A stretch of DNA of 64,000 nucleotides. It comes from a bacterium. GTDB taxonomy: Bacteria; Pseudomonadota; Alphaproteobacteria; Rs-D84; CACZYB01. This document shows positions 16,980 through 33,501 of this stretch, piece after piece. Under the pieces are notes generated by a model. It had not been told where the DNA came from and made no database searches. It saw only the letters and a program-made list of their open reading frames with translations. The position numbers and the translations under genes are program-made. Position 1 is the first letter of the stretch. Every line of letters begins with the position of its first letter. The stretch covers positions 4,138-68,137 of the forward strand of contig JAAVBO010000022.1 of NCBI GenBank assembly GCA_014803575.1, read 5' to 3'.

Positions 16980-17009
16980 TTGACTTTTTATAAAAAATAG
17001 TGTATAGTA
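16980..17009 (+). promoter_or_regulatory. sigma70-like promoter (TTGACT-18-TATAGT)
   Basis: Seen in sequence upstream of 17181 ORF. Confidence 0.4.
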
Positions 17010-17180
17010 GTTTTCAACTAATGGGATAAGTATACCCATTTTTTTTATAATCTGTAATCTTCATTTTTCTGTGAAGATTTTTTTATTGAGATTTTGTGAT
17101 GAATATTTGAATGGCTATCTTTTTTTAGATAGCTTATGAAATTTCCATATTTGTTATGGAATTCTAATGGAGGATAGTTT

Positions 17181-17621
17181 ATGAATTTTGTTGATGATAG
17201 AAATAAATTTATTAAGAAATCAAAACTTAATAATAGTATGAATAAATTAATATTGGCAAAAACTTTATTTAAAATTGCAGGCAGTGATGAATTGTTATTA
17301 AATGCTGTTGCAAATGTTATTTTAAATAGGTTTTTATATGAGTATGAAATTGATAATGAAATAACTTTTATAAAATGTATTACGGATATTTCTTTTTTGC
17401 CTTGTTGGAAAGATTTGAAATCTATGGATAATATTTGTATTGATAATAGTGTATTTAAAAAATGTTTTAATTTTGCGGGTTTTGTATTAAGTGGAAAATT
17501 AAAAGATGACACTTTTTCTTCTATCAGATTTCATAGAGTCGGAGAATTCCCATCTTGGGCAATAGGACTTAAATATATAAAAGATGTTTCCGGTTATCTT
17601 TTTTATAATAATTGTGATTGA
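17181..17621 (+). CDS. cell wall hydrolase, SleB/CwlJ (Hydrolase_2) family
   Basis: LLNAVANVILNRF matches the conserved (V)A(V)AAVILNR(V) core of SleB/CwlJ hydrolases. Confidence 0.55.
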   Translation: MNFVDDRNKFIKKSKLNNSMNKLILAKTLFKIAGSDELLLNAVANVILNRFLYEYEIDNEITFIKCITDISFLPCWKDLKSMDNICIDNSVFKKCFNFAGFVLSGKLKDDTFSSIRFHRVGEFPSWAIGLKYIKDVSGYLFYNNCD

Positions 17622-17647
17622 TAAAATAATTTGAAAGGGATTTTAGA

Positions 17648-18388
17648 ATGGATAATTTAAAAAATAATGAGTTAAAAAAAATTGTTCCTGATAATGGTAT
17701 TAAATCTGAGGTTGCAAATAAACCTTCTAATGTGCCGGAAAAATTTTGGAATAGTGAAACCGGAAGTTTAAGAGATGAAGAGCTTTTGAAATCTTATTTG
17801 GAATTAGAAAAAAAATTTAGTTCTTGTTCCAAAAAAAAAGGTGATGATAAAAATATTTTGGAACTTGCTCTTGAAACAGAAGGTCCTGCATCAGATTATA
17901 ATATTGTACTTCATCATAAGTTATTAGATATTGATGAGAATCTTAATAAGCGGTTAAAAAATGCCGGATTCACAAATGCTCAAGCTCAACTTGTTTATGA
18001 TTTAGGGGCTGAAATAGTTATGCCTTTGATTGAAAATATTGTTGAACAATTTCGTGCCTATCGTGAGCTTGAAAAGTTGGAAAAATATTTTGGTGGAGAG
18101 GAACGTTTTGATGAAATTTCAAGACAGATTTTGATGTGGGCTGAAAAAAATGTGCCGGAAGAAATTTATGAATCTCTTAATTCTTCTTATTATGGTGTTA
18201 TTGCTTTGTATAATATGATGACAAGTAACAATGAACCTTCTATGGTGAATATGAATGGTGAAGGAGAGAGTGTGTTAAGTGAAAAAAAATTAAGAAGTAT
18301 GATGAGTGATCCAAGATATTGGAGAGATGGTGATAAAGATTTTATAAAAAAAGTTGATGAAGGTTTTAAAAATTTATATGACAGATAA
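17648..18388 (+). CDS. T7 gp9-like capsid assembly (scaffolding) protein
   Basis: Acidic helical protein; GGEERFDEI ~ T7 gp9 GGRERFDAL and C-terminal MSDPRYWRDGDKDFIKKVDE ~ T7 gp9 MSDPRYRTDANYRRQVEQKV (from memory). Confidence 0.55.
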   Translation: MDNLKNNELKKIVPDNGIKSEVANKPSNVPEKFWNSETGSLRDEELLKSYLELEKKFSSCSKKKGDDKNILELALETEGPASDYNIVLHHKLLDIDENLNKRLKNAGFTNAQAQLVYDLGAEIVMPLIENIVEQFRAYRELEKLEKYFGGEERFDEISRQILMWAEKNVPEEIYESLNSSYYGVIALYNMMTSNNEPSMVNMNGEGESVLSEKKLRSMMSDPRYWRDGDKDFIKKVDEGFKNLYDR

Positions 18389-18480
18389 AATTTTTTAATA
18401 CTTTTTTGATATTTTTTATTGAAGTATGCTTTTGAATGTGATATACTGAAATTGTCTTTTGTTAAATAGGAGAGAGAAAT

Positions 18481-18813
18481 ATGTTTAAAAGTATAATTAA
18501 AAAAGCTAAACCTGCTTCTAAAAAAGTTGAAGCAAAAAAGGCTCCTGCTAAAAAAGCAGTACCAGCTAAAAAAGTTGCAGTTAAAAAAACTACAACAACA
18601 ACTGCTAAAAAAGTTGTTGCAAAGAAACCTGTTGTAGCAAAGAAAGTAACTGTAAAAAAGGCTCCTGCTAAAAAAGTAGCACCAGCTAAAAAAGTTGCAG
18701 TTAAAAAAGCACCTGCTAAAAAAGTAGTTGTTAAAAAGGCTGCTGTAAAAACTGCTTCTGTAAAAAAATCAGTTAAACCAGTTGCAAAAAAAAAAGTAGC
18801 AAAAAAGAAGTAG
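18481..18813 (+). CDS. histone H1-like lysine/alanine-rich DNA-binding protein
   Basis: Tandem AKKAxPAKKVAVKK repeats; antisense ORF 18462..18914 is an artefact of the same repeats. Confidence 0.8.
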   Translation: MFKSIIKKAKPASKKVEAKKAPAKKAVPAKKVAVKKTTTTTAKKVVAKKPVVAKKVTVKKAPAKKVAPAKKVAVKKAPAKKVVVKKAAVKTASVKKSVKPVAKKKVAKKK

Positions 18814-18824
18814 TTGATATTTCT

Positions 18825-19382
18825 TTGATGGTATCTAATCCCAATAAAAAGGGTAATGAGGTTAAGAAAAAAACTTCGTTTATCTCTTCTTTGTTGGGAT
18901 TTTTTTATAACCATACAAAAAAAATATTGTCAGTTTATCTTGCTCTTGTCGTTGTATTTTCTTTCGCATTTGCTTTCATAAGAGAGTTGGATGTTTATAA
19001 GCAAATAAGATTTTCAACTAATCCTGTGGAAATTATGTTTATTTCTATTGCATATTCCATATTTGATATTATCAAATATTTTGTGCCGGTTCTTATTATT
19101 GCTTTGATTGTAAAGTATATTATGATGAAGGCGAGAAAGATAAAATTAAAATTTGTTTTTAAAAGAAGTTTCAAAAGACAAACAATGATTGCGTTTACAA
19201 TTTCATTTGTTTTTGCAATTATATTTTATTTTGATGTTTTATTGGTGACCAATTATTCTCGTCAATTAGTAGAATCATCATTAGAGTTATTTATTTTGTT
19301 CTTTTTATCTGTATTATTTACATTGTCTTCAATGTATGGTTTGTTAAAGGGAATTTCTCCTGTATTTGAACAAAAAAAATAA
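18825..19382 (+). CDS. membrane protein, hypothetical
   Basis: 4 TM segments. Confidence 0.45.
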   Translation: MMVSNPNKKGNEVKKKTSFISSLLGFFYNHTKKILSVYLALVVVFSFAFAFIRELDVYKQIRFSTNPVEIMFISIAYSIFDIIKYFVPVLIIALIVKYIMMKARKIKLKFVFKRSFKRQTMIAFTISFVFAIIFYFDVLLVTNYSRQLVESSLELFILFFLSVLFTLSSMYGLLKGISPVFEQKK

Positions 19383-19556
19383 TAAAATTAATTTTAATTA
19401 TACTTTGTAAGATTTAAAATCCGCCGGTTTGTGCGGATTTTTAATTTTGCAAATAATATGCAGATAAAGTTTCGGGATAACATTTCTTTATGCCCCGTTT
19501 GGGTGTGCCTTTATTTTAAAGGCATTTTTTTAATTTAAAAAAAAGGAGATATAAAT

Positions 19557-20393
19557 ATGTCAATTTCTATTGATCAATCTTTTATAAAACAGTTTGAAGC
19601 CGAAGTGCATCTTGCTTTTCAACAAACAGGAACAAAACTTCGTTCTACTGTCAGAACAAAAAATGATGTAAGAGGTAGTTCTACAACTTTCCAAAAAGTA
19701 GGTAAGGGAACTGCTACAACAAAAGCAAGACACGGTCTTGTGCCAGTTATGAATTTGGATCATACACCTGTTGAATGTGTATTATCAGATTACTATGCCG
19801 GTGATTGGGTTGATGAGTTAGACGAGCTTAAAACAAATGTTGATGAAAGACGTGTTGTTGCATCTGCCGGTGCGTATGCATTGGGTCGTAAAAGTGATGA
19901 GCTTATTATTTCAGAACTTAATCTTGCTTCACAATCTGTTGAAATGGGAACAACCGGTCTTACAAAGGCGAAAATCCTTTCTGCTTTGGAAATACTTAAT
20001 AATAATGATGTGCCAGATGATGGTCAAAGATTTGCTGTTGTCGGTGTGCATCAATGGAATGAACTTTTAAATATGAAAGAATTCTCAAATGCTGATTATG
20101 TCGGTGATTCTTATCCTTTATTAAACGGAACGGAATCAAGAAAATGGCTTGGTATTAATTGGATTATGCATAATGCTTTGCCTTTTGATGAAGATAATTC
20201 TTCAAGAGCTTGTTTTATCTATCACAAAAATGCAATAGGTCATGCATCAGGTTGTGATGTTAAAACTGATATTACATGGCATGGTGAAAGAGCTGCGCAC
20301 TTTATTTCTAATTGTATGAGTCAAGGTGCAAAGCTTATTGATAACAGCGGTATTGTTAAAATTATGTGTAAAGATACTTCTGTGATTGGTTAA
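19557..20393 (+). CDS. T7-like (gp10-like) major capsid protein
   Basis: FQKVGKG...VPVMNLDHTPVE...DERRVVASAGAYALGRKSDELIISELN resembles T7 gp10 FPVLGRTQAAYLAPGENLDD...DVRSEYTSQLGESLAMAADGAVLAEIAGL (from memory); strong RBS aaaaaggagat. Confidence 0.75.
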   Translation: MSISIDQSFIKQFEAEVHLAFQQTGTKLRSTVRTKNDVRGSSTTFQKVGKGTATTKARHGLVPVMNLDHTPVECVLSDYYAGDWVDELDELKTNVDERRVVASAGAYALGRKSDELIISELNLASQSVEMGTTGLTKAKILSALEILNNNDVPDDGQRFAVVGVHQWNELLNMKEFSNADYVGDSYPLLNGTESRKWLGINWIMHNALPFDEDNSSRACFIYHKNAIGHASGCDVKTDITWHGERAAHFISNCMSQGAKLIDNSGIVKIMCKDTSVIG

Positions 20394-20419
20394 TAATAAA
20401 CAAAAAAAAGGAAATAAAA

Positions 20420-20674
20420 ATGTCAATGGATTCAAAAAATTTATCAGTTCTTGCTTATTCTAACGGTTTTACTTTGTGGCATTATAAAACAGATGATGCG
20501 AAAACTGTTGTCGGAGCAAGCGGATATTTCAATAAAGTGTCGAATATATTTAATGTAGGAGATGTTATTTTTGCATCTCTTGGAAATACCTCAAAAGAAA
20601 TGGTAATGTATACAGTTTCTTCTGTGGAAAGTGGTGTTGTTAGTGTGTCTGATGTAATGCCAACAAGTGTTTAA
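20420..20674 (+). CDS. small phage-module protein, hypothetical
   Basis: Sits between capsid and tail tubular A; own RBS and terminator. Confidence 0.4.
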   Translation: MSMDSKNLSVLAYSNGFTLWHYKTDDAKTVVGASGYFNKVSNIFNVGDVIFASLGNTSKEMVMYTVSSVESGVVSVSDVMPTSV

Positions 20675-20694
20675 TTTTAGTAATTTGGAATAAA

Positions 20695-20723
20695 ATCCCT
20701 GTTTTCGGACGGGGATTTTTTTA
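20695..20723 (+). terminator. Rho-independent terminator
   Basis: ccctgttttcggacggg hairpin + T7. Confidence 0.5.
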
Positions 20724-20733
20724 TGGGAGAAAT

Positions 20734-21297
20734 TTGATGAATAATTTTACAATGGTGGATTTGTGTTCTAAGGCTTTGAATAAAATAGGAGCAAGTGAAA
20801 TAGTTTCTTTTGACGAAGGAACACCAGAGGCGGAATTTTCAAGAAGTATATATCCTGTATTAAAGCATAAGTTATTATCATCATTTCCATGGAGTTTTGC
20901 AACGGAAATTAAAAGGCTTAATAAGATTGTTATTGAAGATGTGGAAGCAGAATTTTCTAATTGTTATTTGCTTCCGTCTGATTTTATAAGGGCAGTGAAA
21001 ATTTCATCAAAACTTCCATATAAGATTATTGGGGATAAATTATTTACCGATGCGACAGGTGTTATACTTACTTATATATCTGATGTTGATGAATGTAGGT
21101 TTTCATCTGCTTTTGTATCGGCATTTATTTATGCTATTGCAGCAGAATTATCGGTTTCGCTTTTGGATGATGTGACTAAATTTAATTTATTATACCGACT
21201 TTATACTTCTGAATTAAGGGAAGCAAGATTTTTAGACAGTATGCAGGAAAGTCCAAAAAAGTTTAATGACTTTTCTTTGATTGATGTGAGGTTTTAA
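20734..21297 (+). CDS. T7 gp11-like tail tubular protein A
   Basis: Size (187 aa), position after capsid, N-terminal ...KALNKIGASEIVSFDEG...WSF... resembles gp11 ...NDILASIGEPPVSTLEGD...WTF. Confidence 0.65.
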   Translation: MMNNFTMVDLCSKALNKIGASEIVSFDEGTPEAEFSRSIYPVLKHKLLSSFPWSFATEIKRLNKIVIEDVEAEFSNCYLLPSDFIRAVKISSKLPYKIIGDKLFTDATGVILTYISDVDECRFSSAFVSAFIYAIAAELSVSLLDDVTKFNLLYRLYTSELREARFLDSMQESPKKFNDFSLIDVRF

Positions 21298-21304
21298 GAG
21301 AGGA

Positions 21305-23218
21305 GTGAATATGTATAAACAAGTGATTTCTAATACTAACTTTTCCTATGGTGAAATTTCCCCTTATTTATTTGGAAGAGGAGATATTGAGGCATATAAA
21401 TCCGGAGCAATGACTATTTCGAATATGACAGTTATTCCTACCGGCGGAATAAAAAGAAGAGATGGAACTAAGTTTATATCTCAGTTGTCGGGTGTAGGAA
21501 AATTGTTGGTTTTTGAATATTCTTCGGACAAAGTATTTCTTTTGTGTTTTACTGATAAAATATTGTATATTTATGATAGCGATAATAATTTGGTCGCATC
21601 TTTGTATTCTCCGTTTAGTTTGGAACAACTTTCTAATATAAGATGGTCACAGAAAGGTAATCTTCTTTTTATTGTGCATAAGGATATTTTTCCTAAGATT
21701 TTAAAATATATTCCGTCTGGCAATATTTGGAAGTTTGAAGATTGGGTGTTTGATAAAAATCCGGAAACCGGAGCTTCGTATCAGCCGTTTGCAAAATTTG
21801 ATGATACAGAAGAAATTTCTCTTACTCCATCAAATTTGACCGGAGAGATAGAGTTGGAAGCTTCGGACGAATTTTTTGATGTTTCTTATGTCGGAACAAA
21901 AATTAAAATAAATGGTGGTGAAGTTTTGATTACAGAGTTTATTTCTTTTGTGAAAGTTAAGGCTTTGGTTATTATTGAATTAGAAGGTACGGAAGCTTCT
22001 TATTTTTGGCAAGAACAGGCATTTTCTTGCAGGCGAGGTTATCCTAAAACTATTACATTTCATCAAAACAGATTGGTTATAGGGGCATCAAAATCTTTAC
22101 CTAATAGATTGTGGTTTTCCAAAACTGGAAATTATTTTAATTTTGATTTAGGTGAAGGTCTTGATGATGAAGCGATAGAGTTTGATATGTTATCGGATAA
22201 AGTTAATGAAATTGTTTGTGTGTTTTCAGGACGGCATTTGCAGGTTTTTACATCTGATTCCGAATGGATGGTTTCCGGATTGCCTTTGACACCATCATCA
22301 TTATCCGTAAAACAACAAACAAAAATCGGTTCTGTTTCGGATAGATTTATCTCTCCTAAATTAATAGAAGGTTCAACTGTATTTGTTGCAAAAAATAATA
22401 AGGAAATCAGAGAATTTTTCTATGGTGATATTACTGAAAATTATTCATCCGAAGATTTGATTTTACTTTCTAACCATTTGATGAATAAACCGAAAGAATT
22501 GGATTATGATATTAAAAAAAGATTGCTTTATGTTTTACAAAGTGACGGAACTGTTTCTGTTTTACTTTTGAATAAAACAAGTGGTATTAATGCTTGGTTT
22601 AAATATGAAACTTGCGGAGAATTTATTTCTTTGTGTGTATTTTTAAATAATTTATATGTTATTGTAAAACGTGAAAATGACTATTTTTTAGAAGTATTTA
22701 CGGAAGATATTTTTACTGATAGTTCGTTGGTATTTAAATCTAAAAATAAAACAAATAAAATAGTTGGAATTTCCCATTTGAATAATAAAGTTGTCAGTGT
22801 TAATGCCGATAATTATGTTTTTGATGTAAAAGTTTTAAATGGGGAAATTAATTTACCGATTGAGGCGGAAAATATTTTTATCGGACTTCCTTATACACAT
22901 ATTTTGTGTCCGTTACCATTTTTGATAGGTGGTGTTAGGGCGCCTAAGGTTGTTAGGTTGTTTGATTTGTCTTTTCGTGTTATGGATACACCTTTATTGC
23001 AAATAGATACCGGTGATGGTTTAAGAAATATTACCTGTCGTAATTTTGACAGGGAAGATAATATTGATAATCCAATAAAAATTTTTAGCGGGGATGTTCA
23101 TATAAAGGCAAAAGGTTTGTTAAGAAATTTTAATGTTCCGTTATGGAAACTTCAAAGTTCAAAACCTTATAATGTTAATATTTTAAATGTTTCTGCTACT
23201 GTTGGTAGCGTAAAATAA
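21305..23218 (+). CDS. T7 gp12-like tail tubular protein B
   Basis: QNRLVIGASKSLPNRLWFSKTGNYFNFDLGEGLDDEAIEF ~ T7 gp12 FRNRLGFLSGENIILSRTAKYFNFYPASIANLSDDDPIDV; follows gp11-like gene. Confidence 0.75.
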   Translation: MNMYKQVISNTNFSYGEISPYLFGRGDIEAYKSGAMTISNMTVIPTGGIKRRDGTKFISQLSGVGKLLVFEYSSDKVFLLCFTDKILYIYDSDNNLVASLYSPFSLEQLSNIRWSQKGNLLFIVHKDIFPKILKYIPSGNIWKFEDWVFDKNPETGASYQPFAKFDDTEEISLTPSNLTGEIELEASDEFFDVSYVGTKIKINGGEVLITEFISFVKVKALVIIELEGTEASYFWQEQAFSCRRGYPKTITFHQNRLVIGASKSLPNRLWFSKTGNYFNFDLGEGLDDEAIEFDMLSDKVNEIVCVFSGRHLQVFTSDSEWMVSGLPLTPSSLSVKQQTKIGSVSDRFISPKLIEGSTVFVAKNNKEIREFFYGDITENYSSEDLILLSNHLMNKPKELDYDIKKRLLYVLQSDGTVSVLLLNKTSGINAWFKYETCGEFISLCVFLNNLYVIVKRENDYFLEVFTEDIFTDSSLVFKSKNKTNKIVGISHLNNKVVSVNADNYVFDVKVLNGEINLPIEAENIFIGLPYTHILCPLPFLIGGVRAPKVVRLFDLSFRVMDTPLLQIDTGDGLRNITCRNFDREDNIDNPIKIFSGDVHIKAKGLLRNFNVPLWKLQSSKPYNVNILNVSATVGSVK

Positions 23219-23236
23219 TATTGAAAGGAGTTTTAA

Positions 23237-23707
23237 ATGGGTAATGTTGCTAATACTGTGAGTGCTGTGACATCGGCAGTTGGAGTTGTTGATAATATTG
23301 TTAGCTATAAAAACAATAAAGATAAACAAAAGGAAGAAAATAGAATATTAGAAGAAGAAAAGCGAATAAAAGAAGAGCAGATTGATGTAAAAAAACAACA
23401 ATATAAAGAAGAAAAAACAAATTTGTTGAAGGTGAAGCTTGCTTCTCAAAGGGCTAAATTGGGTGCTAACGGAATTAATGCAACTTCCGGCTCTTCTGTG
23501 GCATATCTTTCTAATTTAGAAAAGAATGTTGATGAAGAAATTGCAAAAAATGATTATTTCGCTGATTTGAATCTGCAAAATGAAAATAATATTTATAATT
23601 ATAAAAAGAAAGTTAATTTATTAAATTCATCAAAAAATAATTATAATGTTTTTTCTGATACTTTGAAGTCAACTACACAGCTTTTTTCTTCGTTATGGAA
23701 AATTTAA
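23237..23707 (+). CDS. coiled-coil phage-module protein (possible gp13-like internal/assembly protein)
   Basis: Position after gp12-like gene, size 156 aa, charged coiled-coil; no motif-level match. Confidence 0.3.
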   Translation: MGNVANTVSAVTSAVGVVDNIVSYKNNKDKQKEENRILEEEKRIKEEQIDVKKQQYKEEKTNLLKVKLASQRAKLGANGINATSGSSVAYLSNLEKNVDEEIAKNDYFADLNLQNENNIYNYKKKVNLLNSSKNNYNVFSDTLKSTTQLFSSLWKI

Positions 23708-23718
23708 AAGGGTAATTT

Positions 23719-24441
23719 ATGATGAATGATATTATTGAATATTCCTATATTTGTGATGGGAAACAAACTGTTTTTGAATATTTATTTGAAACTTTTTCTG
23801 TTCCATTTGTGAAAATTTATCTTGATGGAGAATTGATTGAAAAAGGTTTTACAGTTTATCCGTTTAATGATAAATGTGGTGGAAAGGTTGTGTTTGAATA
23901 TCCTCCATTAGCCGGTAAAAAATTAACTGTTTTAAGAGAATTGAATTTTTCCAGAGTTTGTGATTTTCAAACTGGCGGTGTTTTTAGGGCAGAGGATTTA
24001 AATTATGAAATGAATTATAATATTGCTTGTCTTAATCAGTTAGATAAAATATTGAAGAAATCTATAAAACTTTCCCGCTTTGATAACAAAGAAGTAAATC
24101 CTGTTTTGCCTCCGGCAAAGGCAGGTCATGCAATTGTATGGAACGAGAAGGGAAATGGATTTTCGAATTTAGATATTAATATAACCGAACAAGTAAACTT
24201 TGTTGAAGATTGCTTGAATTCGGTGGAAAATTTATATAATGATTTGACTGAGATTATTACAAACAGTCTTGATGTCGGTATTTTGGGACTTTTTCATAAT
24301 TTGTTGGGTCTTATCAGAGGATATCATCCCGATGCCTTTGAAGATTTTAAGTTAATTTCATCTGATTCGGATAAAATTTTTGATTATGGTTTGGTTAGTG
24401 ATACTCAAAACATTAATGTGAAAAATAATGGTAAATTGTAA
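23719..24441 (+). CDS. T7 gp17-like tail fibre, N-terminal adaptor domain only
   Basis: EYSYICDGKQTVFEYLFETFSVPFVKIYLDG ~ gp17 TYQLDGSNRDFNIPFEYLARKFVVVTLIG; FRAEDLNYEMN ~ LRAYDLNVAQI; 240 aa vs ~550 aa fibre, no distal domain. Confidence 0.55.
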   Translation: MMNDIIEYSYICDGKQTVFEYLFETFSVPFVKIYLDGELIEKGFTVYPFNDKCGGKVVFEYPPLAGKKLTVLRELNFSRVCDFQTGGVFRAEDLNYEMNYNIACLNQLDKILKKSIKLSRFDNKEVNPVLPPAKAGHAIVWNEKGNGFSNLDINITEQVNFVEDCLNSVENLYNDLTEIITNSLDVGILGLFHNLLGLIRGYHPDAFEDFKLISSDSDKIFDYGLVSDTQNINVKNNGKL

Positions 24442-25042
24442 AAAAAATACAAAAGTCAGTTTTTTAGAATTTTTGAAAATATGGTGTGATGTGCAAGGTA
24501 TTTCTTTGCCTTTGCACCATAAAAAAATTGCTCAGTGGTTGGAAGAGATTTTTTATTCTGATAAAAAAAAGGGGTTGTTATTAGCGTTCAGAAGTAGTGG
24601 GAAGTCTACTGTCGTTGGACTTTTTTGTTCATGGCTTTTGTATATTAACCCGAATGTCAGGATTTTGGTTTTGGCGGCGGATACGGTGCTTGCAAAAAAA
24701 ATGGTGCGAAATATAAAAAGGATAGTGGAGATTCATCCTATGTTAGAGGATATTAAACCCAAGAAAAAGCAAGAGTGGGCTTCGGGAAGTTTTACTGTGG
24801 AGCGAGATTTGGCACTTCGTGATCCATCTGTGATGGCGGTTGGACTTCTTTGCAATTCGACTGGAAGCAGGGCAGATGTTATTATTTGCGATGATGTGGA
24901 GGTGCCGAAGAACTGTGATACTTATCAAAAACGGTGTGATTTGAGGGAAAAATTATTGGAGTTGAATTTTATTTTGGTGCCTAATGGAATGCAGATTTTT
25001 ATAGGGACACCACATACTTTTGATACCATTTACAAGGTTTAA
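24428..25042 (+). CDS. T7 gp19-like large terminase, N-terminal ATPase half (stand-alone ORF)
   Basis: Walker A LAFRSSGKST, GSRADVIICDDVEVP ~ T7 GSRADIIIADDVEIP, IGTPHTFDTIYKV ~ LGTPQTEMTLYK; stops immediately after this motif. Confidence 0.8.
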   Translation: MVNCKKNTKVSFLEFLKIWCDVQGISLPLHHKKIAQWLEEIFYSDKKKGLLLAFRSSGKSTVVGLFCSWLLYINPNVRILVLAADTVLAKKMVRNIKRIVEIHPMLEDIKPKKKQEWASGSFTVERDLALRDPSVMAVGLLCNSTGSRADVIICDDVEVPKNCDTYQKRCDLREKLLELNFILVPNGMQIFIGTPHTFDTIYKV

Positions 25043-25096
25043 ACAGTTGATTTTTTGCCCTCTTTTATACAGAAAATATTTTTTTTCAAATAATTA

Positions 25097-25124
25097 TTGA
25101 CAAAGTAAAATATGTTTGTATAAT
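25097..25124 (+). promoter_or_regulatory. consensus sigma70 promoter (TTGACA-16-TATAAT) driving repeat array
   Basis: Perfect -35 and -10 hexamers seen in sequence. Confidence 0.6.
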
Positions 25125-25197
25125 GGAGGTAGTTTAGTTAGTTAAAAAAGAATTTGCCGGGACGACCCCTCATTTCGGCAAATCTGGTGAAAGCCAG

Positions 25198-25500
25198 TAA
25201 ATTCCCCTAAGTCATTCCCTCCTTATTTTCTCTCTCCTCGACTTAGGGGATAAATTTTTACCGAGAATTCCGAGTAATCTCACAAAGGCGAACTAAAATT
25301 TTCTACTAACCCCGTAGAAAATTAAGTTCTTGTTTGTTCGGTTTCTCTCTCCTCGACTTAGGGGATAAATTTTTACCGAGAATTCCGAGTATAGCAAACC
25401 AGATATCCTAAACTTCTCGCTAAAACCGCTCGTCGTTAAGGATAACTTCGTTTGCTATTCTCTCTTCTCGACTTAGGGGATAAATTTTTATTGATATTTC
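25198..25500 (+). repeat. tandem array: 48-nt direct repeat x3 (third degenerate) with 66-67-nt structured spacers
   Basis: tctctctcctcgacttaggggataaatttttaccgagaattccgagta at 25229-25276, 25344-25391, degenerate at 25459-~25494; first repeat closes an 11-bp stem with 25203-25213 around a CT-rich loop. Confidence 0.8.
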
Positions 25501-25555
25501 TATCTTTATTTAATATTATTTGTAATAATTTAATACAAATAAGAAAGGTGAAAAA

Positions 25556-26215
25556 ATGAAACTCAGCACAGTTGAAAAAATCTATATTATTGAATTTTTG
25601 GGTAGGTATGTTTTGCCTGAATATATGCCTCAAGATTTAAAAAAACAAAGAAGACTCATAACTATGCAGGATGATCTTTCCGGAATTATTAAAGAAAAAA
25701 CCAAAGATAAAAATGAAATAAAGAGAATGATAAAAACTTATATTGAAGACTCTTTACGCTTTTATGTTGAAAGTTTTAATATATCAATGGAAGAGGTGTA
25801 TAATATAGATATAGATGGTGTATTTCCTTCTACTGAAAAAAACATTGTATCAGTAGAAAAAAGTGATTTAGGCAGATATGAAGTTTCAAGACATTTTGGT
25901 GTTATAACAACTGATGAAATAAAGGCTACTTATATTGGTGGCGCAGGAAACTTTTTATATAATGGTAAAAGGGGTATTAGTATTCCAAATTATGTATTTG
26001 ATGATATTAAGGAAGGAAAGAATAATAAATATTTTAAACTATATAATACGGAAGTATATAATCCACCTTATTATAGTCAACATTATTTAGTTGAACCATA
26101 TCGTATACCAAATAATGGATATGTTGAGTTGCCGATAGAGCCTATTCCTTATGATAAAAATTTTGTTGATAGGGAAGTTAATTTAATTTATAAAGCTCGT
26201 GAAAATCAAAGATAG
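25556..26215 (+). CDS. hypothetical protein (219 aa)
   Basis: RBS aaggtg; no recognisable motif; own terminator. Confidence 0.5.
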   Translation: MKLSTVEKIYIIEFLGRYVLPEYMPQDLKKQRRLITMQDDLSGIIKEKTKDKNEIKRMIKTYIEDSLRFYVESFNISMEEVYNIDIDGVFPSTEKNIVSVEKSDLGRYEVSRHFGVITTDEIKATYIGGAGNFLYNGKRGISIPNYVFDDIKEGKNNKYFKLYNTEVYNPPYYSQHYLVEPYRIPNNGYVELPIEPIPYDKNFVDREVNLIYKARENQR

Positions 26216-26221
26216 TAAAAT

Positions 26222-26246
26222 TCCCCTTGGTTTTAGGGGATTTTTT
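26222..26246 (+). terminator. Rho-independent terminator
   Basis: tcccc-ttggtttt-agggga hairpin + T6. Confidence 0.6.
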
Positions 26247-26575
26247 ATGGGAGATTAATTTTTTTGATTTTTTATTTGAAATTTTTGTTTTAAATTGCTA
26301 AAAATAAAACTGTATTTTAAAAGATTTGCGAATCGGTTTAATTTTTTTATAAAAAAGAATCGATTCTTTTGTGTTTTTTAAGATTTTATTGTTTAGACAA
26401 TCTAATTTTTAAAAAGAATCTTTAAAATTTTAATATGTTGTTTTTACAGCATTATTTTCTATTTTTGTGTACTTTAAAAGTTGTCAAAAAAAGAATCGCT
26501 TGACTTTTTTTGTCGAATGTTTTAAGAATCGTTGTATGAAGCGAATAGAAATTGTTTCTGTGAAACTTCAAACCT

Positions 26576-26818
26576 ATTCCCTGTTGCGTTCCTTTTCTCT
26601 CCTTTCCTCCTTCTCTCCTCGCAACGGGGAATTTTTTTGTGCTGATGGAATATTACGGACAGATAGCCTTCGTTAATGTCTAACTTACAGTTTTTTGGTG
26701 GAGATTTTGTGTCGGGTGGGCGTTGACCCAAACAAGCAATCCTAAGCTTCTCACTAATATCGTTCGTCGCTAAGGATAGCTGGGTTTGTGTTCTCCTCGC
26801 AACGGGGAATTTTTTTTG
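26576..26818 (+). repeat. paralogous structured-repeat array (two units) with long terminator-like hairpin
   Basis: 13-bp stem attccctgttgcg/cgcaacggggaat around 31-nt CT-rich loop + T7 (26576-26638); second unit 26732-26818 homologous to spacer-2/repeat-3 of first array. Confidence 0.75.
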
Positions 26819-27028
26819 TGCCTATGGGTATTGCTGACAGAGAGCTTTTAGATAGTAAAAATATTTATAAAGATTTATAAAAGTAGGTCCATATGTGCCC
26901 GCCCCAAGGGGGATAGACCAAAGAGTATCGGCTTTGATGACTGATGAAGGTGTGAAATTCAAAATAATCCTTGAAAGTTTTCTGTGTTTCAGTTTATACT
27001 TCAAAATATAAAAAACGAAAGGTCTATT

Positions 27029-27805
27029 ATGAATAATGTAAATGCGAATACCAATACTGAAAAAGAAGAAATTAAATATTTGACCCTTGATGATATAGAT
27101 AAAATGTATGAAGAGGCGGAACCTGCGGATTGGGGTTTCCCAGAGAACTATAGTGCTGTAGCTTCTAATAGATATCAAAATTTAACAACTTATGTAAAAC
27201 TTACTAAAATAGAGATAGAACGATTACCTGCTGATCATGCTAAGCTTCTTTTAGATTTTTATAATTTGTTTGATGAAAATGAACCTTATAAAGATAAGGA
27301 AGGTACTCCATATAGGGATAATTTATTAAATGATTTATATTATAATATATATGATGACGATTATGCACCTCTGTTTTCATCATCTAATGGAAAAAAAATC
27401 TATAGACACGATATTAAGTATGTAGAAAAGAACTGGAATAATCGTGTTGTAAAGGTTACTAAAATAGGAACAGAAGAAATACCAGTATTAGATAAAAATC
27501 AAAAGATAGAGAAATTGAAAAAATCCTTTGATATATTCAAAAGATTAAAAGAAAGGGATTTAGTTCTTGCCAGTATGTATGATAGAATAGTTAAGGAGGG
27601 GAGGGACTACTTGACATACCATGATTATCTTGGAAATTTTAATACACATTGTATGCTATTAGACGAAGGACGTTTACTTGATTATATAAGATATTTTTTT
27701 GCTAAAGCTAATTGGCGTGGTGCTTTATTTATACAGAACAAATTTCCAAATGTAAAAGTCACGGAAAATATGATGGCACAGTATTTGGAATATAAAGGAA
27801 GGTAA
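27029..27805 (+). CDS. hypothetical protein (258 aa)
   Basis: ATG 27029 with RBS gaaagg preferred over GTG 26984 of ORF track; no recognisable motif. Confidence 0.5.
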   Translation: MNNVNANTNTEKEEIKYLTLDDIDKMYEEAEPADWGFPENYSAVASNRYQNLTTYVKLTKIEIERLPADHAKLLLDFYNLFDENEPYKDKEGTPYRDNLLNDLYYNIYDDDYAPLFSSSNGKKIYRHDIKYVEKNWNNRVVKVTKIGTEEIPVLDKNQKIEKLKKSFDIFKRLKERDLVLASMYDRIVKEGRDYLTYHDYLGNFNTHCMLLDEGRLLDYIRYFFAKANWRGALFIQNKFPNVKVTENMMAQYLEYKGR

Positions 27806-27811
27806 TAAAAT

Positions 27812-27836
27812 CCCCTCTTTTGAGGGGTTGTTTTTT
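27812..27836 (+). terminator. Rho-independent terminator
   Basis: cccctc-tttt-gagggg hairpin + T-run. Confidence 0.55.
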
Positions 27837-27838
27837 AT

Positions 27839-28795
27839 ATGATATTTATGTATAATAATACTATGAATGAAGAGTATTTTAATATTGCCGGTTTTACAAA
27901 GTATCCAACGAATATATATAATTCGGAGCCGGAGAATGGTTATGCTCAAGGGGTGAATGAATGTAAGATTCCGGAGGCCTTGGTTTATTATGGCTTAGAT
28001 TCTGATACCCAATTTATGAAGTTATTTAATCCTGTATGGTATAGTGTTTTGAAGAGTTGTAAATTGCAGGCTGTTGTTTATAGTATATCAAATTATTTAT
28101 TTGATAACAGTCTTTCTCCTTTGTGGAATAAGTTTGAAAGAAATGTTGTTGATATGTTGCCGGCTGTGATAATTCTTTGCGGTTGGCAAAGGCATATTGA
28201 AAATATGAAAAAGAAAAAATTTGATATAACTCAGATTGAATTTAACAGGCAAGAGATACGAAATACTTTGACAAAGGGTATGCGAGTTTATGGGAAATCC
28301 GGTATGCTTATATCCGGAATGATATGGGCGAGTATATTATTGAATGCGAATCTTGTACAGTTAGGATGTTTACAATATGAAATAAAGAAAGCAAATAATC
28401 AATATGTGTGTGATGAAATATCTATTGGAGATATGATTGTTGCGATACATATTCCTGCCGGAGCTTTGTTTACTCCTGATGCAGTAGAGAAATCCATTAC
28501 AATGGCAAAGGAGTATTTTGGAGATAAGGTTTCGTTTATATGTAATTCTTGGTTATTGGGTGAACAGTTGGGTACTTGTCTAAAATCTGACAGTAATATT
28601 TTTAATTTTCGAAGGTATTTTAGTATAATTAAAACGGAAGATTCTGAATCTGTTTATAATTTTTTATTTAATAATGCGGATGATAATCCTAATATATCTG
28701 ATTTAGCGGAGGGAACATCTTTGCAAAAGTCAGTTAAAAAGGCTATGTTATCAGGTATTCATTTTTATGATGCGATTGGGATTTTGAAATGTTAA
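27839..28795 (+). CDS. hypothetical protein (318 aa)
   Basis: No recognisable motif; start uncertain. Confidence 0.45.
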   Translation: MIFMYNNTMNEEYFNIAGFTKYPTNIYNSEPENGYAQGVNECKIPEALVYYGLDSDTQFMKLFNPVWYSVLKSCKLQAVVYSISNYLFDNSLSPLWNKFERNVVDMLPAVIILCGWQRHIENMKKKKFDITQIEFNRQEIRNTLTKGMRVYGKSGMLISGMIWASILLNANLVQLGCLQYEIKKANNQYVCDEISIGDMIVAIHIPAGALFTPDAVEKSITMAKEYFGDKVSFICNSWLLGEQLGTCLKSDSNIFNFRRYFSIIKTEDSESVYNFLFNNADDNPNISDLAEGTSLQKSVKKAMLSGIHFYDAIGILKC

Positions 28796-28908
28796 GACTT
28801 ATATTTGGTTTAGATATAAAATAGGAGGCCGAAAAATATTTCTTTTTGCTTAAAATAAAAAAAAAGGTTGCCTTTTTGTAAAATATAGGTTATAAATCTA
28901 TCATCTTT

Positions 28909-28984
28909 GGCTAGGTAGCTCAGTCGGTAGAGCAAAGGACTGAAAATCCTTGTGTCGGCGGTTCGATTCCGCCCCTCGCCACCA
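28909..28984 (+). tRNA. tRNA-Phe (GAA)
   Basis: Cloverleaf by hand: anticodon loop cuGAAaa, T-arm ggcgg/ttcgatt/ccgcc, encoded CCA. Confidence 0.85.
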
Positions 28985-28995
28985 TAAAAGGTCAG

Positions 28996-29018
28996 ACTCT
29001 CGTTTTCGGGAGTTTTTT
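28996..29018 (+). terminator. terminator after tRNA-Phe
   Basis: actctcg-tttt-cgggagt hairpin + T6. Confidence 0.55.
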
Positions 29019-29020
29019 AT

Positions 29021-29246
29021 TTGTGTGTCGGCGGTTCGATTGTCCTCGGGCTTTGCCCTCGTTCGTCCCGTAAGGCTCAACTTCGGACTTTGTCCTCGTT
29101 TTGCCAACTATCGACTCGTCCTCGGGCTTTGCCCTCGTTCGTCCCGTAAGCTTAAAGCATCGCCTTTGGCTCGCGTTTAAGCAACTATCGACTCCCGCCC
29201 CTCGCCACCATAAAAGGTTGAACTCCCTATTTTGGGAGTTTTTTTA
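29021..29246 (+). other. second copy of tRNA-Phe 3' end (att-like direct repeat) split by a 153-bp GC-rich insert, followed by duplicated terminator
   Basis: gtgtcggcggttcgatt (29024-29041) ... ccgcccctcgccaccataaaagg (29195-29217) match the tRNA 3' end; insert 29042-29194 = two 76-nt units each starting with tcctcgggctttgccctcgttcgtcccgtaag and ending aactatcgactc. Confidence 0.7.
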
Positions 29247-29341
29247 TGTTTAAAGTTTTTTTTCTTAAAAATTTTCTTTATCTCTTAACATTTTGCTTTT
29301 TTTATGGTATAATGTCGGGGAATAAAGTAAGGAGAGATATT

Positions 29342-30958
29342 ATGATAGGAGAAGGAAACTTCGGCTATAATTCACAAAATGATGATGATATTCAAAATTT
29401 TATTCCACGAATCACCGTAATGGGAGTTGGTGGTGCCGGTTGTAATGCCGTGGGAAATATGATTTCTCAGGGTATTGACGGTGTTGATTTTGTTGTTGCA
29501 AATACAGATGCTCAGTCTTTGATGCAATCAAAAGCATCAAGGAAAATCCAACTTGGAAAGCAAACAACTCGCGGTTTTGGTGCCGGTTCTCGTCCGGAAG
29601 TAGGGCAAAGTGCGGCGGAAGAATCCTTAAATGAAATTACTGATGTTATTAAAAACTCTAATATATTATTTTTAACTGGCGGTATGGGTGGCGGAACTGG
29701 TAGTGGTGCTATGCCCGTGATTGCCTCGGTTGCAAAGGAAAAGGGGATTTTAACGGTTGCAATTATTACTACACCTTTTGATTTTGAAGGGGAAAAGAAA
29801 AAGCGTATTGCAAAAGAGGCTATTTCCAAACTTATCCCTAATGTGGATTGTGTAATAACACTTCCTAATCAGAATTTATTTAAGGTTGCGGATAAGCAAA
29901 TGTCGTTTATGAATGCCTTTAAGTTATCTGATAATGTCCTTTATGAAGGGGTTAGAAATATTACAGATTTAATTATGAAACCTGGACTTATTAACCTTGA
30001 TTTTGCCGATATAAGGGCGGTTATGGAAGGACAAGGTAAGACAATAATCGGGACTTCTGTTCAAAGTGGTGAAAATAGGGCTTTAAAGGCGGTGGAAGGT
30101 GCTCTTCTTAATCCTCTGCTTTCTAATGAAAGTATAAGTGGAGCAAAGGGTATTCTTGTAAATATTACCGGTAATGCGTCAAATCTTTCCTTGGAAGAAG
30201 TTGGGGAGATTATGAATACCATTAGAGCCGGAATAAATTCAGAAGATACGAATTTTGTATTTGGAACTTGCTTTGATGATTCTATGGGTGACAGTTTGAA
30301 AGTTGCAATTATTGCAACCGGAATTGATGGTGCAAACGTATCGCAAAAGCCGGTCCTCAGCAGTTTTGATAGTTTTACATCTGAGGTTGTAAAACCTACA
30401 CCTTATTCATTTGAGGAAGAAAAGAAAGTTGAAATTAAAATGGAAGAACCTGTTATCAAAGAAGATAATTTGAAAGTTAAACAGGAACCGATTGTAAATA
30501 CTGATAAACTTGATAGTTTTTTTGAAACCGGTGATGAAAAGGATATTCAAAGTTTTATTGATGAGGAAGCAGAAAAGCTTAACATTGCAAGTAATGTAAC
30601 AAATGAACTTTTTGCCGATAAATCAGATAAAATTTCATCTTCTGATGATGATGGTGATGATAATCCGGAACCACCAAAGGGAAAAAAGAAAAATCCTTTG
30701 TCATCATTTTTTGATATGATTGGAGAAAAAGGTAATGATGATACTTTCTTTGAAGATGTTGATTTGGGAAAGGATGATGATATTACTTTTAAGAAAGAAG
30801 AGCAAATTTCCGATAAAAAGGAAGAAGATAATGTCGTTTTTTTAGCAGGTAGTCTTGATACTAAAAATCAAGAGGATAAGCAAATTGATTTGATGGAAAT
30901 GATTAAAAAAATGGAGGAAACTTTGGAAATACCTGCAATATTTAAAAAAGGTTCTTAA
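29342..30958 (+). CDS. ftsZ: cell division GTPase FtsZ (long acidic C-terminal linker)
   Basis: GVGGAGCNAV, GGGTGSG tubulin signature; ATG 29342 with RBS aggagag preferred over ORF-track start 29246. Confidence 0.9.
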   Translation: MIGEGNFGYNSQNDDDIQNFIPRITVMGVGGAGCNAVGNMISQGIDGVDFVVANTDAQSLMQSKASRKIQLGKQTTRGFGAGSRPEVGQSAAEESLNEITDVIKNSNILFLTGGMGGGTGSGAMPVIASVAKEKGILTVAIITTPFDFEGEKKKRIAKEAISKLIPNVDCVITLPNQNLFKVADKQMSFMNAFKLSDNVLYEGVRNITDLIMKPGLINLDFADIRAVMEGQGKTIIGTSVQSGENRALKAVEGALLNPLLSNESISGAKGILVNITGNASNLSLEEVGEIMNTIRAGINSEDTNFVFGTCFDDSMGDSLKVAIIATGIDGANVSQKPVLSSFDSFTSEVVKPTPYSFEEEKKVEIKMEEPVIKEDNLKVKQEPIVNTDKLDSFFETGDEKDIQSFIDEEAEKLNIASNVTNELFADKSDKISSSDDDGDDNPEPPKGKKKNPLSSFFDMIGEKGNDDTFFEDVDLGKDDDITFKKEEQISDKKEEDNVVFLAGSLDTKNQEDKQIDLMEMIKKMEETLEIPAIFKKGS

Positions 30959-30979
30959 AAGTTTATTTTTGCTGTTTGT

Positions 30980-31010
30980 CCCTTTGATTTTTTTCAAAGG
31001 GATTTTTTTT
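30980..31010 (+). terminator. Rho-independent terminator after ftsZ
   Basis: ccctttga-tttttt-tcaaaggg hairpin + T8. Confidence 0.6.
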
Positions 31011-31033
31011 ATTTATAAATAAAGGAGTGAAAT

Positions 31034-32530
31034 ATGATAGAAACAAATATTACAGATAAAAATATGATAGACGGTATTTACGAAAGGTATATTAATGCCT
31101 TGGAAAAACGTGCCGTTTGGGAAAATTATTGGGAGGAATGTTATGAATATGCTTTGCCACAAAAAAGCGGGATTTTCAAAAATGATAATGGCAGTGTGAA
31201 AAAAAATTCGACTGTTTTTGATTCAACTGCGGAATCTGCAGTAGACAGACTTGCCAGTAGTCTTCTTTCTCAACTTACACCGCCTTGGTCAAAATGGTTC
31301 GGGCTTGAATTTGGAATTGATATAAGTGATGATGAGGAAAGGTCGGAAAAGGTTCTTCAACTTGAAAATATTGAAAAAATTTTGCAATCGCATTTTGACA
31401 GGTCTAATTTTTATGTGGAGGCACATCAATGCTATCTTGATTTGATAACTGTCGGAACGGCGGTTATGTTATTTGAAGAAAATGCGGTCGGTGAAAATTC
31501 TGCGTTTAAATTTACGGCCGTGCCTATGAATGAAATTGTTTTTGAAGATAGCGGAAATGGAAAATTGGATAGTGTGTTTAGGCGTTCTAATGTTTCTCTT
31601 TCCAATTTGAAATCAAGGTTTGTAAATAGTGTTTTTGATGAAAGACAACAAGATATTATTTCAAAAAATTCTGATAAAAAAGTTTATGTGATTGAGGTGG
31701 TAGTTCCTCGTATTACCTCAACCGGACAACAAGGATATAATTACTTTGCGTTTGTGGATGATGTTGATGGAATATTTGGCAGTGATGAAAGAATTGTCCT
31801 TAAAACCGGAGTATTTGCAAATTCTCCGTTTATTTGTTTCAGATGGCAGAAGGTAAGTTCCGAAATATATGGAAGATCGCCCGTGATGAAGGCACTTCCC
31901 GATATTAAAACTGCAAACAAGGTTGTAGAGCTTATCCTTAAAAATGCGTCTATTGCGGTAAGCGGTATTTGGCAGGCGGATGATGACGGGATTCTAAATC
32001 CTCAGAATATTACTCTTGCCCCCGGAACTATTATACCAAAGGCAGTTGGATCTGCCGGACTTACACCTATCAGAAGCGGTGCTGATTTTGATGTGTCGCA
32101 ACTTGTTCTTTCTGATTTAAGGGCCAATATCAACAGGTGCTTATTGGTGGATCAATTGACTGCTTCGTCCGGTGGTAAAATGACTGCTACGGAAGTGATA
32201 GAGCGAATAAATCAGATATCCCGTATTTTGGGTGCGACTTATGGCAGATTGCAATCGGAGTTTTTGACTCCTGTCATTATTCGTGCGGTTAGCATTTTGA
32301 AGCGTCGCGGGGAAATTTCTGATATAATGGTGAATGGGTATGAAGTTGATTTGAAGTATCAATCTCCACTTGCGCAAAATCAGATAGTTCGCGATGCCGA
32401 AAATGTTTTAAATTGGATAAAAACTTTGGCTGAATTTGGTGAAGATGCAATGAGTATTATTGATAAAAAGGCTGTCGCATTATGGCTTGGTAAAGTTTTT
32501 GGTGTGTCTGAAAAATTGATTATATCTTAG
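31034..32530 (+). CDS. T7 gp8-like portal (head-to-tail connector) protein
   Basis: EIYGRSPV ~ T7 gp8 ESYGRSYI; GGKMTATEVIERINQISRILGATYGRLQSEFLTPV ~ GERVTAEEIRYVASELEDTLGGVYSILSQELQLPL (from memory). Confidence 0.75.
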   Translation: MIETNITDKNMIDGIYERYINALEKRAVWENYWEECYEYALPQKSGIFKNDNGSVKKNSTVFDSTAESAVDRLASSLLSQLTPPWSKWFGLEFGIDISDDEERSEKVLQLENIEKILQSHFDRSNFYVEAHQCYLDLITVGTAVMLFEENAVGENSAFKFTAVPMNEIVFEDSGNGKLDSVFRRSNVSLSNLKSRFVNSVFDERQQDIISKNSDKKVYVIEVVVPRITSTGQQGYNYFAFVDDVDGIFGSDERIVLKTGVFANSPFICFRWQKVSSEIYGRSPVMKALPDIKTANKVVELILKNASIAVSGIWQADDDGILNPQNITLAPGTIIPKAVGSAGLTPIRSGADFDVSQLVLSDLRANINRCLLVDQLTASSGGKMTATEVIERINQISRILGATYGRLQSEFLTPVIIRAVSILKRRGEISDIMVNGYEVDLKYQSPLAQNQIVRDAENVLNWIKTLAEFGEDAMSIIDKKAVALWLGKVFGVSEKLIIS

Positions 32531-32545
32531 TTTAAAGAGGTTATT

Positions 32546-33427
32546 ATGGAAGAAGATTTGAGTAAGCCTTTTTTGGTCGGGTTTGATGTCCTTAAAATAC
32601 CTGTGATTGAAAATGGAAAACCTACTTGGGAAGAAAAGTTTCCGATTCAAAAAATAGAGGAGCTTAAGGCACGAGTTGGAATTAAAAAATTTTCTTCCCA
32701 AATGATGTTGATGCCTATTGATACAAATAAGGGTAGGTTCGATGTAAAAAAATTAAAATTTTATTCATCAGAACTTCTTATGGAAGAAAGAAACAGGCTT
32801 CTTAATTTTTCAATTAATGGGAATAAGGTTGTAAGTTGTTCTTGTTGGTGGGATCCGTCCTATGGGTCAAGAGGTGGTGACGGAAGTGTAATTTCTGTTG
32901 TTTTTATTGATGAAGTGGGGCGATATTATCTTCATGATGTAAAGTATTTATATCATTCTGATGGGAATGCAGAGGAAATTCAGTCTGCGGTTGACCAATG
33001 TAGGCAAGTGGGCGAATTTTTGCGGGAAAATCATATACCTTCTGTGTATGTGGAAAGTAATGGCATAGGCAAATTTTTGCCGGGGTTTTTAAGAGGAGAG
33101 CTTTCAAAAATGGGGGTAAATGCTACTGTTATTGAAAAAACATCCAGAATTTCAAAGAATTTGAGGATTTTAGATGCGTTTGATGTGATTATTTCCGCTG
33201 GGTATCTTTTTGTGAATGAAAAGGTTAAAGATACGCCTTGGATTGCAGAATTTTGTGATTGGGGTGTGGATACAAAATCGCATGATGACGGGCTTGACAG
33301 TGTTGCGGGGGCTATTTCTTCGCAACCGGTCAGACTTCCTTTGACTTTGTTTTCCGGTTTAAAGGGCAGGTATAGTTTGGCCGGAAAAACCTTTAAAATA
33401 AAGACTAATTTTGATATAGATTTTTAA
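32546..33427 (+). CDS. T7 gp19-like large terminase, C-terminal nuclease half (stand-alone ORF)
   Basis: FSSQMMLMP ~ FTLQFMLNP; WWDPSYGSRGGDGSVISVV ~ VIDPSGRGKDETGYAVLYT; HDDGLDSVAGAIS ~ HDDRLDALALGIE; own RBS aagagg 15 bp after portal stop. Confidence 0.8.
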   Translation: MEEDLSKPFLVGFDVLKIPVIENGKPTWEEKFPIQKIEELKARVGIKKFSSQMMLMPIDTNKGRFDVKKLKFYSSELLMEERNRLLNFSINGNKVVSCSCWWDPSYGSRGGDGSVISVVFIDEVGRYYLHDVKYLYHSDGNAEEIQSAVDQCRQVGEFLRENHIPSVYVESNGIGKFLPGFLRGELSKMGVNATVIEKTSRISKNLRILDAFDVIISAGYLFVNEKVKDTPWIAEFCDWGVDTKSHDDGLDSVAGAISSQPVRLPLTLFSGLKGRYSLAGKTFKIKTNFDIDF

Positions 33428-33442
33428 ATCGACAAATAATTA

Positions 33443-33471
33443 TTGACAAATCATATTTTTAAGTTTATATT
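33443..33471 (+). promoter_or_regulatory. sigma70-like promoter (TTGACA-17-TATATT)
   Basis: Seen in sequence; shares 18-nt caaataattattgacaaa with promoter at 25087-25104. Confidence 0.45.
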
Positions 33472-33501
33472 ATAACTATATTTTAATAAAAGAGGTATGA
33501 T

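Follow-up and report, generated by a model that had tools for sequence, protein, structure and literature searches.

The RNA1 locus and its surroundings

The window, which is the whole stretch of 64,000 nucleotides that was analyzed, is part of a bacterial chromosome, as it encodes MipZ, FtsZ (TIGR00065 equivalog), YidC, RecJ and an MltB-like transglycosylase, and the related records are MAGs of uncultured gut Alphaproteobacteria. Among these core genes we observe a set of T7-like head and tail genes (15705-34158) that comprises scaffold, capsid, tail tubular A, nozzle, internal virion protein, fibre N-domain, portal and a terminase in two ORFs, and in which no RNA polymerase, DNA polymerase or integrase was found. 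This set encloses ftsZ, and mipZ comes directly after it. The order of the set is conserved in five other species (L006-L010), with capsid proteins that are 82-90% identical, and locus L012 has a compact cluster with an unsplit terminase and host genes on its flanks. The set resembles a podovirus module that has been domesticated and is possibly GTA-like.

The subject of this work, an RNA array that we call RNA1, directly follows the stop codon of the N-terminal half of the T7-like large terminase (24428-25042), the C-terminal half of which lies 7.5 kb downstream (32546-33427). It is followed by an open reading frame, ORF219 (25556-26215), by a second array, RNA2 (approximately 26500-26816), and by a segment (26984-28795) encoding ORF273, which has no family match, and then a GNAT_C-domain protein. 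The last two genes lie between RNA2 and tRNA-Phe in the window and in loci L002 and L003, and are absent from L006 and L007. Compared with the minimal layout, seen in L007 (N-terminal terminase half, RNA1, intergenic DNA, RNA2, tRNA-Phe, ftsZ, portal, C-terminal terminase half), ORF219, ORF273 and the GNAT_C gene of the window are lineage-specific insertions. A phage origin of the array was rejected, as blastn against 50,697 phage records gave no match and three exact-pattern scans of viral contigs came back empty. With respect to the tRNA genes of the window, copies of the 3' half of tRNA-Phe (region 28909-29244) recur at 29024-29041 and 29195-29244 and enclose a 76-nt tandem repeat (29042-29194), and these repeats may be the scar of an integration or excision at the tRNA gene. 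Elsewhere, ARAGORN calls a 92-nt tRNA-Asp with anticodon ATC (50142-50233) that the Rfam tRNA model does not report at the gathering threshold; the call is possibly spurious, or the tRNA an unusual one.

RNA1 is preceded on the forward strand by a perfect promoter match, TTGACA-16-TATAAT (25097-25124), which is the only 12/12 match in a promoter scan of 24000-29500 (5.5 kb); the original prediction was thus correct about this site, and it is also conserved, since both hexamers and the 16-nt spacing are constant in all related loci in which the region is present, while the letters of the spacer vary. Predicted folding and alignment delimit a core small RNA of approximately 130 nt with three hairpins (25131-25262, forward strand), namely hairpin 1 (25152-25183), hairpin 2 (25184-25197) and hairpin 3 (25203-25250), with a U-tail (25251-25260) 3' of the last. 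Hairpin 3 is an 11-bp stem, CCCCUAAGUC.../...GACUUAGGGG, around a 26-nt CU-rich loop (25214-25239; CCCUCCUU...UCUCUCUCCUC, pyrimidine-rich loop sequence CAUUCCCUCCUUAUUUUCUCUCUCCUC), and this stem, already proposed from the sequence, is indeed part of the minimum-free-energy fold. With the U-tail next to it, hairpin 3 is also a terminator-like hairpin. The predicted fold of the whole 370-nt transcript is considerably more stable than that of shuffled sequences (z = −6.55).

Downstream of the promoter, a direct repeat of approximately 50 nt occurs three times (25227-25276, 25342-25391 and 25457-25506) with a period of exactly 115 nt. The three copies had been recognized before, with a repeat length of 48 instead of 50 nt and spacers of 66-67 instead of 65 nt. 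Copies 1 and 2 are identical at 50/50 positions, and copy 3 is 78% identical; it had been described as degenerate, and its divergence is in fact limited to the part beyond the first 34, near-identical nucleotides, beginning only where the linker of a next module would be expected to start. A 24-nt core of the repeat has three occurrences in the window (0.00 expected), and within each repeat we observe a small terminator-like hairpin, UCUCCU-CGACUU-AGGGGA, followed by UAAAUUUUU. A search of the window found the repeat core and the hairpin motif confined to the two arrays, and a dispersed repeat family was rejected on these grounds.

The segments between the repeats are accessory modules, each built from a linker (CCGAG...CGAG), a hairpin of approximately 65 nt, a CU tract, a small hairpin and a U-tail. 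Their hairpins belong to two subtypes, H1 (spacer 1 of the original prediction) and H2 (spacer 2), and the stems described for these spacers (ttctac/gtagaa, agcaaac/gtttgct and atcct/aggat) are present. In module 2 (25261-25375, forward strand), the linker CCGAGAAUUCCGAG leads to an H1-type hairpin, which is followed by the CU tract UUUCUCUCUCCUC and by the small hairpin UCUCCU-CGACUU-AGGGGA with its U-tail; the module has a terminator-like site at 25348-25365 and a fold z-score of −4.67. In module 3 (25376-25490, forward strand; z = −3.77), the hairpin after the linker is of the H2 type, and a CU tract, the 3' arm GACUUAGGGG and a U-tail come next. The spacers had been taken to be unique, which they are not: a paralogue of spacer 2, 80% identical to it, lies 1.3 kb downstream at 26730-26790, and both types recur in other species, with module 2 types found in L005, L006 and L034 and H2-type modules in L007 (two copies), L009, L036, L042 and the second array of the window.

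This second array, RNA2, begins with a promoter-like site on the forward strand, TTGACT-18-AAGAAT (26500-26529; 9/12 match), flanked by AAGAATC motifs, and its promoter region (AAGAATCGCTTGACTTTTTTTGTCGA...TAAGAATCG) is conserved in L006-L010. The RNA2 core (26530-26640, forward strand; z = −4.58) has a 5' hairpin, a 13-bp stem (26576-26588 with 26620-26632) that closes a 31-nt CU-rich loop (26589-26619), and a U-tail. An accessory module on the same strand (26641-26816) contains an H2-type hairpin (approximately 26722-26790) and a second terminator segment (26792-26816), and a 25-nt repeat at 26614 and 26792 indicates that the terminator segment of RNA2 is duplicated 178 nt later. As a side observation, four of the seven plus-strand copies of AAGAATC in the 64-kb window cluster at 26355-26530, flanking the RNA2 promoter; the motif contains GANTC, the CcrM methylation site of Alphaproteobacteria, and its context is conserved in L006-L010.

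RNA1 has no counterpart in Rfam: at the gathering threshold, Rfam 15 reports only tRNAs in the whole window, and scans of 24900-27100 and 25120-25500 at E ≤ 10 returned no relevant match, ar14 included. In addition, tmRNA, SRP RNA, 6S RNA, retron, bridge RNA and omega-RNA were discarded as candidates because neither Rfam nor ARAGORN supports them, and neither reverse transcriptase nor transposase domains were found among the neighbouring genes scanned.

Conservation and covariation in related genomes

Scanning a genome collection with the N-terminal half of the terminase returned 30 species-level loci, and a scan of metagenomes with the loop sequence added nine further contigs. Loci L005-L010 have a split terminase followed by the same promoter and RNA1, and L004 retains the promoter and the 5' end of the RNA, as its contig stops inside hairpin 1. 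The terminase is unsplit and the RNA absent in L012-L033, and in L011 the portal gene directly follows the terminase. A covariance model of RNA1 scores 132-165 bits in 17 loci; its weak matches in L017 and L019 were dismissed as false positives, since they consist of an ordinary promoter and terminator and have no CU loop. The same model detects RNA2 in the window (E = 9e-5) and in every RNA1-bearing locus (E = 1e-5 to 3e-4), and both RNAs are present in every related locus that has ftsZ and tRNA-Phe between the halves of a split T7-like terminase.

Between species, the RNA1 core is 86-94% identical, compared to 72-79% for the adjoining coding DNA. Across the 13 distinct RNA1 sequences that make up the core alignment, the loop of hairpin 3 (26-28 nt) and the promoter hexamers are 100% invariant, as are both stem and loop of hairpin 1 (13/13 sequences), and the 31-nt loop of RNA2 is invariant in 10 sequences. 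An invariant hairpin 1 fits a protein-binding site as well as a base-pairing RNA. With respect to pairing, 98.7% of the cells of the core alignment are paired, and eight base pairs are changed on both sides (2.5 ± 1.2 in shuffles, with 0/500 shuffles as high, and ≤2 double-changed pairs in slid controls). The covarying hairpins are 2 and 3, the stem of the latter occurring as CCCCUAAGUC/GACUUAGGGG, CCCUUAAGUC/GACUUAAGGG, CCCCAAGUC/GACUUGGGG and CCCCAGGUC/GACCUGGGG. Covariation is also strong in the accessory modules, where an alignment of nine modules from six species has changes on both sides at 14/24 pairs (7.8 ± 1.5 in shuffles; slid controls ≤5). Covariation in these alignments thus supports the predicted folds of RNA1, and the array, which had been expected to encode a structured RNA, stands up both in the stability of its transcript and in the conservation and covariation of its homologues.

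The U-tail 3' of hairpin 3 is present in 12 of the 13 sequences. It is missing in L035, where hairpin 3 is nevertheless retained through compensatory changes, indicating that hairpin 3 is selected for more than termination.

Furthermore, the orientation of the two RNAs relative to each other is variable, with RNA2 inverted and convergent with RNA1 in L008, L036, L038, L040 and L042. After RNA1 of L009 and L010 there is no ORF, just intergenic, AT-rich DNA up to and including the promoter of RNA2. Going by this arrangement, RNA1 and RNA2 are standalone genes rather than leaders. RNA1 shows features expected of a gene for a trans-acting, base-pairing small RNA, namely independence of flanking ORFs, a conserved promoter of its own, a U-tail terminator of its own and variable orientation with respect to its neighbours.

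Modular growth and rival readings of the array

The number of accessory modules after the RNA1 core differs between species (0-2), with none in L009, L010 and L035 and one or two elsewhere. The 115-nt period arises from the appending of these modules. What repeats is the terminator segment of the core, with which every module ends again, together with the linker that leads into the following module, and the third repeat copy looks degenerate because no module follows it. The repeat-spacer appearance of the locus is therefore explained by modular growth of RNA1. The original prediction had called the locus CRISPR-like, and CRISPR arrays do share with it a regular repeat-spacer periodicity 3' of a promoter. 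The difference is that the place of the "spacers" is taken here by homologous, covarying hairpins, which are found again in other species and in a second locus. Since the spacers are conserved in this manner and no cas gene or Cas domain was found among the flanking ORFs scanned, the CRISPR-like reading was rejected.

The layout had also been likened to a type III toxin-antitoxin locus, in which case ORF219 would encode an endoribonuclease toxin, and the 115-nt units would be the antitoxin RNAs that this toxin cleaves and binds. Published loci of this type are recognized by short tandem repeats and a terminator ahead of the gene for a ToxN-like toxin (PMC3401426), and toxIN, cptIN and tenpIN loci resemble the present one in the order of promoter, tandem RNA repeats, terminator-like hairpin and ORF: the promoter at 25097-25124 precedes the repeats, and U-tract hairpins in each repeat precede ORF219. 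The authors of PMC3401426 moreover expect undiscovered families. However, ORF219 is not inherited together with the RNA; it is found with it only within the species of the window and is absent from other species that have the RNA, including L006-L010, all of which retain both RNA1 and RNA2. It is also an orphan, with no match in Pfam, PHROGs, PADLOC or NCBIfam, only insignificant matches to PDB sequences (best E = 0.11), only itself and one partial match (E = 1e-4) in a phmmer search of 1.8 billion representatives, and orphan status among 5.8 billion clusters as well; there is no homologue of ToxN/AbiQ, CptN or TenpN by sequence, and its AF2 model has a pLDDT of 40. In addition, the tandem repeats of toxIN and cptIN are 31-62 nt long (PMC3401426), so that the units here are, as had been pointed out, longer than known ones, and whereas the known repeats are short, near-identical and form antitoxic pseudoknots, these "repeats" are heterogeneous modules that share only approximately 50 nt, the remainder being different hairpin subtypes. 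We therefore reject the toxin-antitoxin reading as extremely improbable. Aside from this question, ORF219 is a divergence hotspot between the strain of the window and strain L002 (88% nucleotide and 81% amino acid identity; 41 nonsynonymous and 21 synonymous codon differences), while its flanks are approximately 99.5% identical.

Three further readings leave ORF219 aside as a toxin. One takes the array for a cis-acting leader or attenuator in which the single 5' arm CCCCUAAGUC pairs alternatively with any of three identical 3' arms, each followed by a U-tract, to control the downstream gene, and the minimum-free-energy fold of the full-length transcript does join the 5' arm to the last 3' arm. 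Against this reading stand a downstream gene that varies (it is ORF219 in the window, and L009 and L010 have none), an RNA2 that faces RNA1 in five loci and is hence upstream of no ORF, and a second 3' arm that no longer matches the 5' arm in L007, L036 and L042, and we regard attenuation as very unlikely. Another holds that the core of approximately 130 nt is functional alone, modules 2 and 3 being tandem duplications or insertions of small terminator-associated elements that are kept alike by recombination or gene conversion. Terminator copies are identical within one array and different between arrays and species (e.g., GACTTAGGGG vs CGCAACGGGG), a U-tail stands ahead of every module, and the scan of 24000-29500 found no internal promoter for modules 2 and 3, so that efficient termination at hairpin 3, if it occurs, would leave them rarely transcribed. 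Given the copy number of 0-2 and the truncated or disrupted module copies in L007 and L008, the extra modules may be dispensable. Neutral DNA would nevertheless not keep the strong compensatory covariation that the module hairpins show across species, and array 1 is almost unchanged in strain L002 (approximately 98.5% identical overall) while the adjacent ORF219 has diverged to 88%; a role for the core alone is, on balance, unlikely.

According to the third reading, the RNA sequesters a protein, with single-stranded CU tracts and hairpin 1 titrating an RNA-binding protein as CsrB/RsmZ do with CsrA, and modules adding binding sites. The several near-identical CU tracts per transcript, the invariant stem and loop of hairpin 1, the very strong (consensus) promoter and a module copy number that differs between species would all suit such a sponge. 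Set against this, no candidate gene for a pyrimidine-tract-binding protein adjoins the RNAs in any locus, RNA1 of L009 and L010 has a single CU loop, and the motif matches the anti-Shine-Dalgarno sequence, for which pairing is the simpler explanation. Sequestration of a protein is thus a possibility to which we attach little weight.

Predicted mode of action and candidate targets

The reading that we prefer, at a probability of roughly 0.6, is that an uncultured gut alphaproteobacterium carries RNA1 as a small-RNA gene in its own right, with a strong predicted promoter and CU stretches that pair with ribosome-binding sites. The invariant loops carry CCCUCCUU and UCCUCCUU, which we take to resemble the anti-Shine-Dalgarno end of 16S rRNA, and the loop had been described as anti-Shine-Dalgarno-like before, a description that our results support. 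By pairing with ribosome-binding sites that are rich in purines, the CU-rich stretches would repress the translation of mRNAs or change how stable these are. Read-through of weak terminators would yield longer isoforms, possibly with subsequent cutting in AU-rich linkers. The suggestion of a processed array of small RNAs, raised earlier as an alternative, comes close to the modular small-RNA gene that we describe here, with the processing itself as a proposed step.

Among known systems, the closest comparison is with the cuckoo/CcsR RNAs (RSs0680, ar14), which are modular alphaproteobacterial small RNAs, often present in several or tandem copies per genome, with two to four adjacent hairpins whose loops carry CCUCCUCCC (PMC4615179). 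They resemble RNA1 and RNA2 in their host class, in adjacent hairpins with C/U-rich, anti-Shine-Dalgarno-like motifs in large loops (the published model permits loops of 9-27 nt), in variable module number and multiple or tandem copies, and in a terminal terminator-like hairpin (PMC4615179). They differ in several respects. The defining motif CCUCCUCCC is absent from the array, and CCTCCTCCC is absent from 25097-26816, where the loops carry CCCUCCUU and CCUCCUUC instead; the C/U-rich motif here lies in a loop only in the core hairpin, the CU tracts of the modules lying between hairpins; and the loop of 26-31 nt is situated within the terminator hairpin itself. As RNA1 in addition matches no covariance model in Rfam at E ≤ 10, that of ar14 included, we rejected membership in the cuckoo/ar14/CcsR group. 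The best reading of this comparison is that RNA1 and RNA2 represent a new family that would work in the manner of cuckoo/CcsR RNAs, for which anti-Shine-Dalgarno-like pairing is the most likely mechanism.

The candidate targets are ftsZ and possibly mipZ, both of which are syntenic with the RNA genes and have exceptionally purine-rich ribosome-binding regions. The longest ORF of ftsZ starts at 29246; an ATG at 29342 is preceded by TTAACA-17-TATAAT (29285-29313) and by AAGGAGAGA, and the true start appears to be 29342 on the basis of conservation, the promoter-like site and the AAGGAGAGA ribosome-binding site. By duplex energy, the ribosome-binding region of ftsZ ranks 1-2 among 17-54 ORFs with both loops in five of six species, and that of mipZ is among the top three in L006 and L007. 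Shuffled loops (40 each) rank ftsZ first just as readily, in 12/40 cases for loop 1 and 22/40 for loop 2, and the ftsZ leader is the most purine-rich translation-initiation region of the window. The ranking therefore reflects the GA-rich composition of the leader and is no evidence of specific complementarity; ftsZ was rejected as a specific target and retained as a lead only.

A related case is DicF, a small RNA of a defective prophage that is reported to repress ftsZ in E. coli (PMC5069750). The two situations are alike in that a small RNA lies in degenerate phage-derived DNA, with the RNA genes here syntenic with ftsZ and with the ribosome-binding region of this gene as their best predicted partner for pairing in the neighbourhood; they differ in that sequence and structure are dissimilar and the predicted ftsZ pairing is composition-driven here. 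A DicF-like role for RNA1 and RNA2 is a speculative lead and an improbable one. Improbable, too, is the wider proposal that RNA1 and RNA2 are a regulatory link from the domesticated T7-like particle genes to cell division, with the CU loops stopping translation of ftsZ and mipZ. If it were true, DicF-like arrest would be coupled to particle production in gut Alphaproteobacteria, and RNA1 and RNA2 would be expressed from very strong promoters inside a split terminase gene.

These results add a well-supported pair of paralogous small RNAs, uncatalogued in Rfam, to the poorly studied, uncultured gut Alphaproteobacteria. They also illustrate that a core small RNA can grow by 3' modules that reuse its own terminator, and that such modular growth gives a locus the look of repeats and spacers, which invites confusion with CRISPR arrays and with toxin-antitoxin loci of type III. 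Finally, the fixed position of the pair, between the halves of a split phage terminase and close by ftsZ and tRNA-Phe, offers a handle on the regulation of both the phage-derived gene set and cell division in these bacteria.
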